DNA of 64,000 bases from Candidatus Izemoplasmatales bacterium (lineage in GTDB: Bacteria > Bacillota_I > Bacilli_A > Izemoplasmatales > Hujiaoplasmataceae): assembly GCA_050177605.1 (NCBI GenBank), contig JBFXGX010000008.1:1-64000 (forward strand), given 5' to 3'. The notes below the pieces were generated by a model. It was not told where the DNA came from, searched no databases, and saw nothing but the letters and a program-made list of their open reading frames with translations. The translations under genes and the position numbers were made by a program. Shown piece by piece: positions 35,790-41,450 of the stretch; within the stretch, counting starts at the first letter, position 1; the number at the start of each line of letters is the position of its first letter.

Positions 35790-35954
35790 AGTATCACCTC
35801 AAATCAATTATATCATAGAAAAAAAGAAAATGAAGAAATCTGATTTTTTCTCTAATTCTGGAGAAAATTTCACCTAAGCATTTTTAAGCAAATGATTTGC
35901 TTTTTTAGAGGATTATTGCGATAATGTTAGGGTAATTTATTGGAGGTATTAACG

Positions 35955-36656
35955 ATGAAAATTGAAATTTGGTCAGATTTCGCTTGCCCATTTTGTTACA
36001 TTGGGAAGAAGAGATTTGAAAATGCATTACAAAAATTTGCACATAAGGATCAAGTTGAAGTGATTTATAAAGCTTATCAATTAAACCCAAATGCGCCAAA
36101 AGTGATGAAGGGAACAGCCTATGAAAGTTTCGCAGAAGGTCATCACACAACCGTAGAACAAGCAAAACAACGTTTTAACATGTTTACTGAAAATGCAAAA
36201 ACTGTAGGGCTCACCTACAACTATGATATTATTCAAATGACGAATACAGTGGATGCACATCGCATTGCTAAATGGGCAAACCAATTTGGCAAAGAACCAG
36301 CAGTGACTGATCGTTTTATGAAAGCTTATTTTACAGAAGGATACAATCTAGCAGACTTTGATACATTAGTAAAACTAGTAGGTGAAGTTGGCCTTGATCA
36401 AAACGAAGCGAGAAATGTACTTGAAAAGAATGACTTCCTAGATAAAGTCTTATCTGAGCAACAAGAAGCAAGACAAATTGGTGTTCAAGGTGTACCTTTC
36501 TTCGTGATTAACCGAAAATATGGTGTATCCGGTGCCCAACAAGAAGAGTACTTCAGCGCAGCGCTAGAACAAATTTGGCAAGAAGAAAATCCACTCGTCT
36601 CACTTGAAGACGCAGATGAAGAGAGTGCTTGTACAGACGAATCTTGTTCTTTATAA
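35955..36656 (+). CDS. FrnE/DsbA-family dithiol-disulfide oxidoreductase
   Basis: WSDFACPFCYIG, GVQGVPFF, SGAQ, C-terminal CTDESC. Confidence 0.9.
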   Translation: MKIEIWSDFACPFCYIGKKRFENALQKFAHKDQVEVIYKAYQLNPNAPKVMKGTAYESFAEGHHTTVEQAKQRFNMFTENAKTVGLTYNYDIIQMTNTVDAHRIAKWANQFGKEPAVTDRFMKAYFTEGYNLADFDTLVKLVGEVGLDQNEARNVLEKNDFLDKVLSEQQEARQIGVQGVPFFVINRKYGVSGAQQEEYFSAALEQIWQEENPLVSLEDADEESACTDESCSL

Positions 36657-36750: not shown

Positions 36751-37080
36751 ATGGCCGTATATCTAACTGAATTAGAAACATTAAAACAAAGAAAGAAAAT
36801 GAGAGTTCCTTATCTCAACCGGTTTTTGTTATTAGCTTATCACGAGGAGAAAGTATATTGTATCCATGATAAGTGTCCTCATATGGGTTCGACGCTTTCA
36901 AACGGTATTTTAGAAGGAGAAGTGATCACTTGTAAAGATCATGGCTTACCGATCTCTTTAGTTACCGGTGAAGTCACTGATGCTAGCAAAGCTGAGTTCT
37001 TAAAAATCGACGAGTATAGTCGTAGTGTCAGAGCCTATAAAACATTCATTCAAAATGGGAAAGTCTACTTGGACCTATAA
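36751..37080 (+). CDS. Rieske [2Fe-2S] ferredoxin-like protein
   Basis: CPH..CKDH ligand pairs. Confidence 0.8.
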   Translation: MAVYLTELETLKQRKKMRVPYLNRFLLLAYHEEKVYCIHDKCPHMGSTLSNGILEGEVITCKDHGLPISLVTGEVTDASKAEFLKIDEYSRSVRAYKTFIQNGKVYLDL

Positions 37081-37151: not shown

Positions 37152-38060
37152 ATGGACAAAATATATGATTTAGTAATTATTGGCGCTGGTCCAGCTGGAC
37201 TTGGTGCTTCCATTTATGCTAGTCGCGCAATGCTTGACTTTGTATTCTTAGAAAAATGGCTACCTGGTGGAGAAATTGCGAACACATATGAAGTTGAAAA
37301 TTATCCAGGAATCAATCATGTGAGCGGCGCAGAATTATCGGATTTAATGATTAAACACGCAGAAGAACTTGGCGCAAAAATACAAAATGAAGGTGTAACT
37401 GATGTTGATTTCACAGGGGAAATCAAGAAAGTTGTTACACGTAAAAACACCTATTATACAAAAACAGTGATTATCGCGACAGGGGCATCCTCTCGTCGAC
37501 TTGGTGTACCAGGAGAAGATCAGTTTTATGGTATGGGTGTATCTTACTGTGCAACCTGTGATGGTGCGTTATATAAAGATAAAGTAGTCGCAGTTGTCGG
37601 AGGTGGAGACGTCGCTGTCGAAGATGCAATCTATTTATCACGTATGGCAAAAAAAGTGTACTTGGTTCACCGTAGAAATGAACTTCGTGCAGTGAAAACA
37701 TTACAAGAAAAAATGTTTCCTCTTCCAAATGTTGAAGTGATTTGGGATAGTGTTATTACCCGAGTAAATGGGGACCAATATGTAGCGAGCGTTCATATTC
37801 AAAATAAATTAACTGGTGAAGAAAAAGAACTTACGGTTGATGGCTTGTTCGTCGCAGTCGGAATGGATCCAAATAGTGAATTTCTCAAAGGAAAAGTTGA
37901 AATGGACAGTGGAAACTGGATTCTCACTGATGAAAATTGTGAGACGAGTGTCAAAGGCGTCTTTGCGGCAGGAGATGTAAGAAAAAAATTATTACGTCAA
38001 GTAATCACAGGGGTTGCGGATGGAGCCATTTCAGTATTTGCACTAGAAAAATATTTATAA
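37152..38060 (+). CDS. trxB: Thioredoxin reductase
   Basis: IIGAGPAG, SYCATCDG, VGGGD, FAAGD. Confidence 0.93.
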   Translation: MDKIYDLVIIGAGPAGLGASIYASRAMLDFVFLEKWLPGGEIANTYEVENYPGINHVSGAELSDLMIKHAEELGAKIQNEGVTDVDFTGEIKKVVTRKNTYYTKTVIIATGASSRRLGVPGEDQFYGMGVSYCATCDGALYKDKVVAVVGGGDVAVEDAIYLSRMAKKVYLVHRRNELRAVKTLQEKMFPLPNVEVIWDSVITRVNGDQYVASVHIQNKLTGEEKELTVDGLFVAVGMDPNSEFLKGKVEMDSGNWILTDENCETSVKGVFAAGDVRKKLLRQVITGVADGAISVFALEKYL

Positions 38061-38061
38061 T

Positions 38062-38090
38062 AAAAAAAGGAGCCTCGGCTCCTTATTTTT
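38062..38090. terminator. Bidirectional terminator
   Basis: AAGGAGCC-TC-GGCTCCTT flanked by A and T runs. Confidence 0.65.
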
Positions 38091-38697
38091 TTAAGATGGC
38101 ACGGACAGGTAAGGCTTCCGTGTTTTCAATTTTTAAAGGTAAGCATATCATGTCATAACTTCCTGCTTCGACGTCTTTGAGACGTAAGCCTTCCATAATA
38201 ATGATATCATTTTCTAATAATAAATGGTGTGTTGGGTGTCCTTCTTGAGCACGTTCAATCCCAAGACCATCCGTTCCGACGCCACTTATATTTCGACTAA
38301 CTAGATAATCGGCAGCACAGGAATCTAAATAGATAAAATCAAAGTCGAATTCTTCACTAAAACTGTTTTTCGTTTTGAATAACAAGAAGTCTCCTTCATC
38401 AATCACATATGCAAACAAATCATCTTTCGTGATTTTATCAGTTAAATGGGTAAAATCTAGCACCTTCACTTTCGTGAGCAATCGATCCAAATCGAATCCA
38501 GTCGAGTCTTTTCCATCCTTGATGATATGAAGTGGAAAATCGATATGTGTTCCCGTGTGAAGATTCATTTCAATATCCGTTTCATAAACAGAAGAAGTTT
38601 GAAAATTAGAATGATTTTTGATTTTCATCATTTTGTCTGGTTTGTTTTTGTATACTTGCACATTTTCAGATAACGTCATAGAAATATCATAATACAT
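38083..38697 (-). CDS. Cyclase-family (KynB-like) metal-dependent hydrolase
   Basis: HTGTHIDFPLH, VGTDGLG, IMEGL, PLKI..PVRA; ATG 38697 overlaps the zwf end. Confidence 0.88.
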   Translation of the reverse strand: MYYDISMTLSENVQVYKNKPDKMMKIKNHSNFQTSSVYETDIEMNLHTGTHIDFPLHIIKDGKDSTGFDLDRLLTKVKVLDFTHLTDKITKDDLFAYVIDEGDFLLFKTKNSFSEEFDFDFIYLDSCAADYLVSRNISGVGTDGLGIERAQEGHPTHHLLLENDIIIMEGLRLKDVEAGSYDMICLPLKIENTEALPVRAILKK

Positions 38698-40051
38698 GGG
38701 TCTCACCTCGAATTTGATTGATAACTTCATCGAAGTCATCAATAGAATCATACTTCATTAATTGATAATGACTTTGTTTCAGTGGATCGACAATATTCCA
38801 AGATGCTTCGATTTCAGACCAGCTTGTGAAAAGAGTTTGATTATGATTTATAAACTCATTTAATAGTTTTTCATAAGCTTCTGGATTATTTCCAATCTTT
38901 TGACAACTATGGCAATAGTCTAGAAGAGCATCGGTTACGCTTCCTTCAAGGCCTGGTTTCTTTACATTCATTTTCACAGAGATACCTTCATAATCAGATA
39001 CCCCAATCACGAGTTGATTAGACTCATGTTCACGTTCTGGCCATAATCTGCTTTGGCTAGAATGTGCTTTGAAATGCACCACAATCTCAGCCTTTTTTTC
39101 ATCGAGTTTTTTCCCAGTTAACAAATAGATAGGAACCCCATTCCATCTAGGTGTATCGACCCGTGCTTCTAAGAATGCAAAGGTCTCTGTCGTTGAATCT
39201 TCAGGTACATTATGTTCACTTGTATATCCTGTGTATTGGCCGAAAACAGCGTTTTTACGGTCAATGGAAGTATGTCTTAATGCTTCGATTTTAGCTTTTC
39301 GAATATCATCAGAAGAGAGTGTCTCCGGTTCGTCCATTGTGACGAGCGCAAGCATTTGTAATAGATGACTTTGTACCATATCTTTCAGCGCACCGGTTTG
39401 ATTATAATATTCGCCACGATTCATAATTGTTTCTGTTTCTTTGACATAAATATCAATGCTTTGAATAGCGTCATGCGACCAGTTGTTCTCAAGCAGTTTA
39501 TTCGCAAAGCGAAGTACTAAGATATTTTGAATCATATCTTTTCCTAAATAGTGATCAATTCTGTAGATTTGGGATTCGCTAAAGAATTCTTTTAAGTCAT
39601 GATTAATCTGTTTCGCAGATGCGAAATCCTCACCAAATGGTTTTTCAAACACAACCCTCGTGTTGGTATCTCCAAAGTTAGATAGATGACTGTTAGCGAT
39701 ACCTCTTGCGATTGTAACGAAGAATTCAGGCGCAACGGCTAAATAAAATAATCGTTCGACAGGTTCCTCCGTCCAAGCGTCCATTTGAACTTTCAATGCT
39801 TTGTAGTCTTCGATATTTTGAATGTCCATTTTTACATAGTTAATCATCGGTTTCAAATCTGAAAAATCAGATTTAACAAAAGTTTCTAAATGTTCGATGT
39901 ATTGTAGATTCGTGTAATCTCTACGTGAAACACAATATATTTTTGTATTTTCGGTAATGATTTTTTTAGCTACGAGTTGATTTAATGCAGGAACGAGTTT
40001 TTTATGCATTAAATTCCCTGTGGCTCCAAAAATAGTTAAAACTTGTTTCAT
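38687..40051 (-). CDS. zwf: Glucose-6-phosphate 1-dehydrogenase
   Basis: IFGATGNL, EKPFG, RIDHYLGK, DMVQSHLLQ. Confidence 0.95.
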   Translation of the reverse strand: MKQVLTIFGATGNLMHKKLVPALNQLVAKKIITENTKIYCVSRRDYTNLQYIEHLETFVKSDFSDLKPMINYVKMDIQNIEDYKALKVQMDAWTEEPVERLFYLAVAPEFFVTIARGIANSHLSNFGDTNTRVVFEKPFGEDFASAKQINHDLKEFFSESQIYRIDHYLGKDMIQNILVLRFANKLLENNWSHDAIQSIDIYVKETETIMNRGEYYNQTGALKDMVQSHLLQMLALVTMDEPETLSSDDIRKAKIEALRHTSIDRKNAVFGQYTGYTSEHNVPEDSTTETFAFLEARVDTPRWNGVPIYLLTGKKLDEKKAEIVVHFKAHSSQSRLWPEREHESNQLVIGVSDYEGISVKMNVKKPGLEGSVTDALLDYCHSCQKIGNNPEAYEKLLNEFINHNQTLFTSWSEIEASWNIVDPLKQSHYQLMKYDSIDDFDEVINQIRGETHVL

Positions 40052-40944
40052 TTTTTATACACCTTATGGCCACCAAACTCATTCCGCATCGCTGAAACGA
40101 CCTTTTCAGAGAAATGATTCACATCCTTTGATTTATAACGAGCAAACAAGGACCCTGCAATGACAGGAATCGATACTTTTTTCTTTAAGGCTTCTTCAAT
40201 CGTCCATTGTCCTTCGCCAGAGTCATCAACGATTCCTTCAAGCGATTCTAATTTACTTTCTTTTTGGAAAGCATGATGGATGCTTCGTAGTAATAATCCT
40301 TCAATAATCGATCCATTGGCCCATACTCGTGATACTTTTTCGTAATCATATTGGTAATCAGAAGATTCTAGTAAATCAAAACCTTCACCAATGGCTTGCA
40401 TCATTCCATATTCAATTCCGTTATGAACCATTTTTGCAAAATGCCCAGCACCAGATTCTCCTAAATAGGCATATCCATTTGTCGTCGCGACAGCTAAAAA
40501 GATTTCTTCAATAGAAGGGATGACTTCCTTATCTCCTCCGACCATTAACGATGCGCCGTTACGAGCACCATCCATTCCGCCAGATGTTCCACAATCGACA
40601 AAATAGATTTGACTAGATTTCAGTAAAGCATGACGACGTACTGTATCATGGAAGTTTGAATTTCCACCATCGATGACGATGTCATCTTTCTTTAATAATG
40701 TCAATAATTCATGTAATACACTTTCCGTGATTTTTCCTGATGGAACCATCAGCCATACAACTTTTCTTTCGGGTAATTTTCCAAGTAATTCTTGATAGCT
40801 AGAAGCGACCTCAATGCCAGCCTTCTTCGCTGTATTTCTCGCCTCCTCAGTCACATCGTATGCGACTACTTCAATGCCATGATCTTTCATATTAAGGGCT
40901 AAATGATAGCCCATTTTTCCAAGTCCGATTAGTCCTAATTTCAT
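40048..40944 (-). CDS. gnd: 6-phosphogluconate dehydrogenase (short decarboxylating type)
   Basis: GLGKMG, DGGNS, DCGTSGG, KMVHNGIEYG, RNEFGGH. Confidence 0.95.
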   Translation of the reverse strand: MKLGLIGLGKMGYHLALNMKDHGIEVVAYDVTEEARNTAKKAGIEVASSYQELLGKLPERKVVWLMVPSGKITESVLHELLTLLKKDDIVIDGGNSNFHDTVRRHALLKSSQIYFVDCGTSGGMDGARNGASLMVGGDKEVIPSIEEIFLAVATTNGYAYLGESGAGHFAKMVHNGIEYGMMQAIGEGFDLLESSDYQYDYEKVSRVWANGSIIEGLLLRSIHHAFQKESKLESLEGIVDDSGEGQWTIEEALKKKVSIPVIAGSLFARYKSKDVNHFSEKVVSAMRNEFGGHKVYKK

Positions 40945-41045
40945 GATTAATTCCTCCTATACAGTACTATTATACTAAAATGAAACTAAGAATTGTGTTT
41001 GTTTGCTTAAATTTGCTTAAAAAAAATACCTCTTTCTTTGAGGTA

Positions 41046-41450
41046 TTATTCGCCAGTAACGGTTTCGTATGGCCAGTCGATGATTCCACCCATATCATAA
41101 ACAAATGGATAACCCATTAATGAGAGAATCGATGAGGCAGTTGCACTTCGATTTCCACTATTGCAATAGATAATGTAAATCTTCGATTTGTCAGGTAGAA
41201 CTGTACTTGCGTCCACACTTACATTATCGACAGGTAGAAGAATTGCATTTGGAATATGATAGGTAGTATATTCTGATAATGTACGCACATCGACCAAGAC
41301 AATATCTGGATTATTATCCATCATTGATTTTCCAACTTCAGCACTAATCACTGTTGGCGAATATGTGAGTGAAGTGGTCGCGCTATTTCCTGAACAGGAT
41401 ACTAAAAATAAAGACACGATGAGGGTGAAAAGTAAAAATATTTTTTTCAT
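41046..41450 (-). CDS. Rhodanese-like lipoprotein
   Basis: Lipobox LVSC; DVRT..EY..HIP, YCNSGNRS. Confidence 0.88.
   Translation of the reverse strand: MKKIFLLFTLIVSLFLVSCSGNSATTSLTYSPTVISAEVGKSMMDNNPDIVLVDVRTLSEYTTYHIPNAILLPVDNVSVDASTVLPDKSKIYIIYCNSGNRSATASSILSLMGYPFVYDMGGIIDWPYETVTGE

Follow-up and report, generated by a model that had tools for sequence, protein, structure and literature searches.

The gnd-zwf-cyclase operon

The window studied here is a 64,000-nucleotide stretch of DNA from Candidatus Izemoplasmatales bacterium (assembly GCA_050177605.1, contig JBFXGX010000008.1, positions 1 to 64,000 of the forward strand). On its minus strand, the genes for 6-phosphogluconate dehydrogenase (gnd) and glucose-6-phosphate dehydrogenase (zwf) are followed by a gene of the cyclase family PF04199, whose product is considered below as a candidate 6-phosphogluconolactonase (Pgl). 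Gnd scored 381 bits against TIGR00872 (gnd_rel, cut-off 297.2) and 407 bits against NF007161, and Zwf scored 425 bits against TIGR00871 (cut-off 400.6), all from NCBIfam. The cyclase matched the Pfam profile PF04199 with 81 bits (cut-off 23.1), over profile positions 1-141 of 142. Features of the locus are listed in Table 1.

Table 1. Genes and signals at the gnd-zwf-cyclase locus, in window coordinates.
Feature	Coordinates	Strand	Basis
gnd, short-form decarboxylating 6-phosphogluconate dehydrogenase (298 residues)	40944..40048	minus	TIGR00872, NF007161
zwf, glucose-6-phosphate dehydrogenase (454 residues)	40051..38687	minus	TIGR00871
cyclase-family (PF04199) gene (204 residues), candidate 6-phosphogluconolactonase	38697..38083	minus	Pfam, sequence comparison
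operon leader before the gnd ATG: TATAAT box; AGGAGG ribosome-binding site	40974..40969; 40958..40953	minus	sequence reading
bidirectional intrinsic-terminator-like hairpin closing the operon, common to the convergent trxB	38084..38067	both	7-bp stem, 4 GC pairs, T-runs on both strands
terminator-like hairpin, upstream boundary of the operon, ends the rhodanese gene	41047..41025	minus	8-bp stem, T-run
rhodanese gene upstream of gnd	41450..41046	minus	PF00581
trxB-like (thioredoxin-reductase-like) gene	37152..38060	convergent to operon	profile match

The three reading frames overlap. The gnd stop and the zwf start share the letters ATGA (40051..40048, a 4-bp overlap), and the zwf stop codon TGA (38689..38687) lies inside the cyclase gene, whose ATG at 38697 is preceded by GGTGAG, which gives an overlap of 11 bp. 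The open reading frame finder lists a longer cyclase start at 38751. We retained 38697, because 35 out of 35 aligned orthologues begin at that position. Terminator-like hairpins were found at 7 sites, against 1.6 expected, and the one listed at the end of the operon is directly 3' of the cyclase stop. A scan for consensus promoters stayed at chance level (14 found, 14.0 expected) and gave no site ahead of gnd; the TATAAT box of the leader is only noted as a possible promoter, not a demonstrated one.

The original prediction had described an operon held together by the two overlaps and closed by a single terminator, with a hydrolase of the cyclase family, whose enzymes carry an HxGTHxD motif. 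All these elements were confirmed in the sequence, the motif reading H47-T-G-T-H51-I-D53 and being followed by H57. We conclude that gnd, zwf and the cyclase gene form one three-gene oxidative pentose-phosphate operon. Chance does not account for the arrangement, which dozens of other genomes and contigs share. The window stretch itself is present in 3 DNA runs of one landfill-metagenome study, and no RNA run is listed as containing it.

Known lactonases were not found in the source genome

The source assembly, 89% complete, consists of 66 contigs that total 1.94 Mb. The zwf and gnd of the operon are the sole copies in it. No match to PF10282, the family of the YbhE-type Pgl, was found in the whole assembly. 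As to the DevB type, the sole protein of the Glucosamine_iso family scored 76.8 bits on TIGR01198, below the cut-off of 124.45; it is NagB, encoded beside MurQ, with 289 bits on TIGR00502. Tryptophan 2,3-dioxygenase (kynA, PF03301) had no match in the assembly, the best score for kynureninase (TIGR01814) was 38 bits against a cut-off of 246, and phosphoketolase was not found. The absence of pgl, kynA and kynU, which had initially been remarked for the window only, thus holds for the whole 89%-complete assembly, where neither the DevB nor the YbhE type of pgl was found.

The cyclase belongs to a distinct PF04199 subfamily

Among solved structures, the nearest to the window cyclase are 1R61/3KRV (E 4e-59) and 8HMO (E 6e-59), which cover 201 of its 204 residues, the 1R61 match spanning residues 2-202. 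Solved kynurenine formamidases reach just E 1e-19. The predicted structure of the cyclase (ESM Atlas, predicted template-modelling score 0.92) aligns to a PF04199 cluster with a template-modelling score of 0.96. In Pfam the protein matches PF04199 alone and in NCBIfam TIGR03035 alone, with no membership of the YbhE or DevB families. The residues H47, G49, T50, H51, D53, P55, H57, H157 and E169 are invariant in 35 orthologues.

Kynurenine formamidase (KynB, EC 3.5.1.9; structures 4CZ1, 4CO9, 4COB and 4COG) has the same fold and family as the window cyclase, and was used as a reference for the active site. The cyclase was aligned to the Bacillus anthracis KynB (BaKynB) sequence of 4CZ1, in a numbering that agrees with PMC4243253. 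The binuclear-zinc ligands and the base of BaKynB, H50, H54, D56, H60, H161 and E173, correspond to H47, H51, D53, H57, H157 and E169 of the cyclase. The substrate pocket differs. As described there, the KynB pocket is built from W20 with P-G-D, from V40 and V42 of the partner subunit and from L158, while P148 and S149 hold waters. In the window cyclase, the aromatic character of W20 is kept in Y16, and P21-G22-D23 gives way to K17-N18-K19, with an additional two-residue insertion containing the invariant K22. E39 stands at the position of V42 of the partner subunit, L145-G146 at that of P148-S149, R149 at that of P152 and H154 in the L158 region; besides the aromatic residue, only V37 is retained. 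The two proteins differ in gene linkage as well, the window cyclase being encoded with zwf and gnd and not with kynA or kynU.

Residues of 39 zwf-linked orthologues were compared with those of 17 paralogues encoded in the same genomes. In both groups the metal ligands are invariant, and K17, N18, K22, E39, E148-R149, Q151, H154 and Y181 are invariant or nearly so in the zwf-linked group alone. The resulting subfamily signature is Y16-K17-N18-x-x-x-K22-x-P24, E39 and L145-G-I-E148-R149-x-Q151-x-x-H154. Membership was defined by two signatures, [VT]-[YW]-K-x-x-x-x-[KR]-x-P near residue 16 and L-G-[IV]-E-R-x-Q at 145-151, because E-value alone failed: outside the phylum of the window, signature-negative homologues reach 40-44% identity. 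The window cyclase itself reads V-Y-K-N-K-P-D-K-M-M and L-G-I-E-R-A-Q, with a methionine at the consensus P24. One genome of the window's class (G067) carries a 40%-identical protein that was first taken as an orthologue; on inspection it proved signature-negative and was reclassified.

A FastTree phylogeny was built from 161 family rows: the window, 56 from its phylum, 30 from a second phylum and 74 of 80 metagenome loci, leaving out 6 rows shorter than 170 residues, 2 duplicates and 1 partial row. A single branch with a support of 99 split the 107 rows positive for E-R-x-Q from the 54 others. The structures 1R61/3KRV (Geobacillus stearothermophilus, P84132) and 8HMO share with the subfamily the Y-K-N-K-P-E-K motif, the E-R-x-Q loop and the metal ligands. 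Judged from the alignments and the tree, the cyclase is thus a member of a distinct, sharply delimited PF04199 subfamily that includes these three structures.

The subfamily is filed as a lactonase in neither Pfam nor NCBIfam. Among 120 listed relatives out of 1287, all source names are "cyclase family protein" or "arylformamidase", and the close relatives are named from Izemoplasmataceae, Acholeplasmataceae, Haloplasmataceae and Xianfuyuplasma, that is, wall-less Bacillota-related lineages. In PMC5341072, 3KRV is called an "uncharacterized predicted hydrolase". In the literature searched, no paper was found for 8HMO, and 1R61 was cited solely as a molecular-replacement model.

The same genome carries a second PF04199 gene (contig 2, 153398-154015), which is 26% identical to the operon cyclase and of the ordinary Y-P-G-D-P type. 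It overlaps the stop of a lipoprotein gene, and similar paralogues are present in most relatives, with zwf or without.

The cyclase gene is linked to zwf

Linkage was measured in four samples. At the level of the order (41 genomes, 3 families, 21 genera), zwf is present in 15 genomes, and exactly those 15 carry a cyclase orthologue, 48-59% identical. In all 14 besides that of the window, zwf is immediately upstream and on the same strand. At the level of the class (300 scored genomes, 29 families, 180 genera), 47 matches were obtained at E<=1e-25, or 46 after removal of the signature-negative G067, and the cyclase is directly downstream of zwf in 44 of these 46 signature genomes. For 8 of the 46 (G251, G134, G059, G292, G244, G265, G305 and G201), adjacency was read from match coordinates alone. 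A further 149 scored genomes, all of the same class, gave 15 matches, all already known.

Metagenome contigs were scanned with an orthologue profile, and 80 loci were kept, 65 of which have the E-R-x-Q signature. Among the 52 signature loci with at least 700 nt of upstream sequence, zwf is in the locus in 49, mostly upstream and in two cases downstream; the three without it are L124, L126 and L159, the last being a truncated fragment. None of the 15 signature-negative loci contains zwf, including 9 with at least 700 nt upstream. At L124 (935-4769), the signature cyclase has a class III (Firmicute-type) fructose-1,6-bisphosphatase on one side and a convergent long-form gnd on the other; the arrangement differs, yet the cyclase is still among sugar-phosphate genes.

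The fourth sample was reached through a Proteiniclasticum genome and consists of 141 genomes of a second phylum, including Bacillus cereus-like genomes with true KynB motifs. Nine of them have a signature cyclase; all nine are zwf-positive, with zwf directly upstream in 8. In one genome (G435:C1:2315995-2316891), the zwf match upstream of the cyclase has one in-frame TAG, which may mean that the gene is broken, that the stop is recoded or that the sequence contains an error. A single-protein scan of genome contigs returned two distant Proteiniclasticum loci and nothing else. A profile search also gave one record, P0123, in which a short-form Gnd is fused to a signature-positive cyclase domain (515 residues); a single-protein search for longer, fused proteins found none.

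The cyclase and YbhE-type Pgl are complementary among zwf-positive genomes

In the order sample, neither PF10282 nor an above-cut-off TIGR01198 match was found in any of the 41 genomes. In the class sample, zwf is present in 66 genomes, PF10282 in 42 of 301, and TIGR01198 above its cut-off in none of 300. The 66 zwf-positive genomes divide into 43 with the cyclase only, 22 with a YbhE-type pgl only, 1 with both (G161) and 0 with neither. Both the cyclase and the YbhE state occur within families f6, f12 and f15. Of the 22 YbhE genomes, 7 have the same short gnd-zwf pair as the window, with no third gene, and 5 have pgl-gnd-zwf operons (4 seen directly, that of G227 placed by coordinates). The second-phylum sample contains 15 zwf-positive genomes: 9 with the signature cyclase and no PF10282, 4 with PF10282 only, 0 with both and 2 with neither (G375 and G493). 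TIGR01198 was above cut-off in none of the 15. PF04199 matched nothing in G375; in G493 it gave a weak match of 40 bits (E 5e-10), which nevertheless exceeds the Pfam cut-off. The anti-correlation between zwf-linked cyclases and pgl that the original prediction called for was therefore seen in both samples.

How often the two states have changed was estimated on a quick IQ-TREE phylogeny of Zwf with 58 rows: the window, 34 other cyclase-linked sequences, G161 and the 22 YbhE genomes. The tree did not include L073, L076, the partial L019 or cyclase genomes without a fetched locus. It requires 5 state changes (mean after shuffling, 18), of which well-supported branches force 4. An independent-pair analysis gave 4 pairs; on average, pgl changed in the opposite direction in 3.8 of them, and in none did it change in the same direction. 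The Zwf phylogeny thus points to at least 4 independent switches between the cyclase and YbhE-type pgl.

Proposed function and mechanism

We consider it likely that the cyclase acts as a 6-phosphogluconolactonase and replaces the YbhE and DevB types by non-orthologous displacement. Such a displacement, put forward in the original prediction to fill the missing lactonase step, finds support in comparative genomics, namely in the linkage to zwf, the complementarity with pgl and the genome without pgl.

The reaction would proceed as follows. Zwf would oxidise glucose-6-phosphate to 6-phospho-D-glucono-1,5-lactone. The cyclase would bind one or two divalent cations through H47, H51, D53, H157 and E169. 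H57 would deprotonate a metal-bound water, and the resulting hydroxide would attack the C1 carbonyl, so that the ring opens to 6-phosphogluconate, which Gnd would then decarboxylate. The phosphate and the hydroxyls may be held by K17, K22, R149, H154, N18, Q151 and E39, in place of the hydrophobic pocket of KynB; invariant lysines, arginine, histidine, glutamate and amides in the pocket would suit a polyhydroxylated phosphate ester. We infer the substrate, the roles of individual residues and the metal from sequence comparison.

A lactonase appears physiologically worthwhile, because spontaneous hydrolysis is slow and E. coli grows more slowly without pgl. According to bioRxiv 10.1101/2023.11.29.569206, the spontaneous rate is 3.97 per hour at 37 C, E. 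coli without pgl grows about 30% slower, and recent flux work in E. coli argues that spontaneous hydrolysis could not keep pace with normal flux; the E. coli strain BL21 has no pgl.

Lactone hydrolysis is also within reach of the family, as it includes a carboxylesterase and a lactone hydrolase. In PMC5341072, MGS0169 is a metal-dependent PF04199 carboxylesterase sharing 17-22% identity with family members including 3KRV, and the trans-dienelactone hydrolase of Pseudomonas reinekei MT1 is named as a family member. With isatin hydrolase added, the same text documents that ester, lactone and cyclic amide bonds are all hydrolysed by metal-dependent members of the family. None of the three enzymes acts on a sugar phosphate, and two of them, MGS0169 and the dienelactone hydrolase, also differ from the window cyclase in their larger size and modified Q-x3-Q-x-D-x3-H motif (PMC5341072).

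The two established Pgl types share with the cyclase the proposed reaction, and both have unrelated folds. The YbhE type (PF10282; E. coli Pgl, B. subtilis YkgB) is a 7-bladed beta-propeller that occupies the same pathway slot and has no detectable homology to the cyclase. No requirement for a binuclear metal site is known for this propeller enzyme. The DevB/PGLS type (TIGR01198) has the Glucosamine_iso fold. No publication linking the cyclase family to the lactonase step was found in a literature search outside which subscription journals lay.

Observations against a lactonase and alternative functions

Several observations weigh against the assignment of the cyclase as a lactonase. Four loci depart from the linkage to zwf. 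In G144, gnd is followed after a 133-bp gap by the cyclase, and no zwf was found in this 99%-complete genome; the cyclase in question (L078, G144:C17, 8832-10515) has a degenerate N-terminal motif with the lysines lost, and the locus may be an operon in decay or belong to a different lactone route. In G299 the cyclase stands by itself, flanked by a peptidase and a transporter, on a contig of 3.9 kb, at L126 it is among unrelated neighbours, and in G423 it is 14.5 kb from zwf on the same contig. The complementarity has exceptions too. G161 has the cyclase plus a YbhE-type pgl, and G375 and G493 have zwf with neither, so that zwf does not strictly require a lactonase gene beside it in the genome. 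The 43/22 split owes much to shared ancestry. With just 4-5 phylogenetically independent contrasts, no formal significance is reached (sign test, p = 0.125). In the source genome, a pgl may be on the DNA that is missing from the 89%-complete assembly. As to the protein, the signature columns were kept in the alignment behind the subfamily tree, which is a source of circularity, and the signature residues were placed around the metal site by alignment to KynB, not from coordinates. Finally, 1R61, 3KRV and 8HMO were deposited just as "metal-dependent hydrolase", and the P0123 fusion is weak, being known from one 2.9-kb contig where an assembly error could have produced it.

Four other functions were considered. 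The cyclase might handle a side product of Zwf, hydrolysing the dead-end gamma-6-phosphogluconolactone or acting as an amidase on 6-phosphogluconoyl adducts, which arise by acylation of amines with the reactive lactone; it would then serve in metabolite or protein repair, above all where Pgl is absent. The characterised members with the classical motif, KynB and isatin hydrolase, are indeed amidases (PMC4243253 and PMC5341072); both forms of the lactone, delta and gamma, have a high reactivity, and the main task of Pgl was thought to be the prevention of such reactions (bioRxiv 10.1101/2023.11.29.569206). An anti-correlation with pgl would moreover be expected of an enzyme needed only without Pgl. 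We nevertheless consider repair unlikely. All 22 zwf-positive genomes of the class sample that have no cyclase possess Pgl, and none has neither, which fits one shared role better than a back-up, while the operon position and the translational coupling to zwf are typical of a pathway step; no adduct-repair activity of the cyclase family was found in the literature searched. Slightly less probable again is a broader or different hydrolase riding in the operon, acting on gluconolactone or other sugar lactones or as a general esterase. G144, which keeps gnd and the cyclase without zwf, would fit a route by way of gluconolactone and gluconate, and a PF04199 esterase with broad ester specificity does exist (PMC5341072). 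The G144 copy has however lost part of the motif, and the links to zwf, 44/46, 8/9 and 49/52 in the class, second-phylum and metagenome samples, point to the product of Zwf, a phosphorylated lactone, whose phosphate would suit the three or four invariant cationic side chains of the subfamily.

A non-catalytic role seems very improbable. OpcA is encoded beside zwf in cyanobacteria and actinobacteria, and the cyclase might likewise serve Zwf as a partner or regulator. The tight translational coupling of the two genes and their strict co-occurrence would agree with such a role, but all six catalytic and metal residues are conserved without exception in 35 orthologues, which speaks for an active enzyme, and a regulator is not expected to be complementary to pgl. 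We give least credence to a kynurenine formamidase (KynB, arylformamidase), as the JGI annotation names relatives. The cyclase is a PF04199 member with all the metal ligands of KynB, and the sources call its relatives "arylformamidase". Four findings contradict this identity: the protein scores 117.8 bits on TIGR03035 against a cut-off of 223.05; neither tryptophan 2,3-dioxygenase nor kynureninase was found in the genome, the neighbours being zwf and gnd; the KynB pocket residues are replaced, and the match to solved KynB is far weaker than that to 1R61; and true KynB-type sequences are on the opposite side of the subfamily branch.

Significance of a probable third lactonase class

Of the oxidative pentose-phosphate steps, the lactonase reaction is the one that is often reported "missing" from genomes and then assumed to be spontaneous. 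No more than two KEGG orthology groups are known for 6-phosphogluconolactonase. From the sequence comparisons, the cyclase probably represents a third class, non-homologous to both. We further think it rather plausible, with less assurance than for the activity itself, that the 1R61-like subfamily as a whole is this third, structurally unrelated class and the main lactonase in many wall-less or low-G+C Gram-positive lineages. If true, a gap would be closed in the metabolic reconstructions of many uncultured lineages, and a systematic misannotation would be corrected for thousands of proteins labelled "arylformamidase" or "cyclase family protein". The three orphan structures PDB 1R61, 3KRV and 8HMO would receive a function, and central metabolism would gain a clean example of non-orthologous displacement that involves at least four independent switches.

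Neighbouring genes and other contexts of the family

The NADPH-producing operon has thiol-redox surroundings: the convergent trxB-like gene that shares its terminator, and the rhodanese gene upstream. Beyond the trxB-like gene are a DsbA-like gene (35940-36656) and a Rieske gene (36751-37080). In 3 out of 3 congeners with the operon (L007, L008 and L017), the trxB-like gene adjoins the cyclase (about 74% identical).

Other genes were seen directly after zwf, in the slot of the cyclase. In several YbhE genomes this is a patatin-like phospholipase gene (L167:5748-6635, L173:4169-5050 and L179:5993-6949). In G423 (L226, G423:C35, 16092-18375), zwf shares its last bases with a carbon-nitrogen hydrolase gene, and the distant signature cyclase adjoins an amidohydrolase and an AIM24-family gene.

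Outside the subfamily, signature-negative cyclase domains are fused with HAD, glycosyltransferase, GFO/IDH/MocA and acetyltransferase domains, which has no bearing on the lactonase question; examples are P0125, P0126, P0129 and P0136-P0139, in which they are joined to HAD-type hydrolase and GFO/IDH/MocA oxidoreductase domains. The wider PF04199 family holds several unexplored sugar-related contexts. Among the structure-neighbour clusters of the ESM Atlas, one combines PF04199 with a ribose-5-phosphate isomerase B domain (94 members, Chloroflexota being commonest) and another combines it with a class II aldolase domain (93 members, Myxococcota being commonest).

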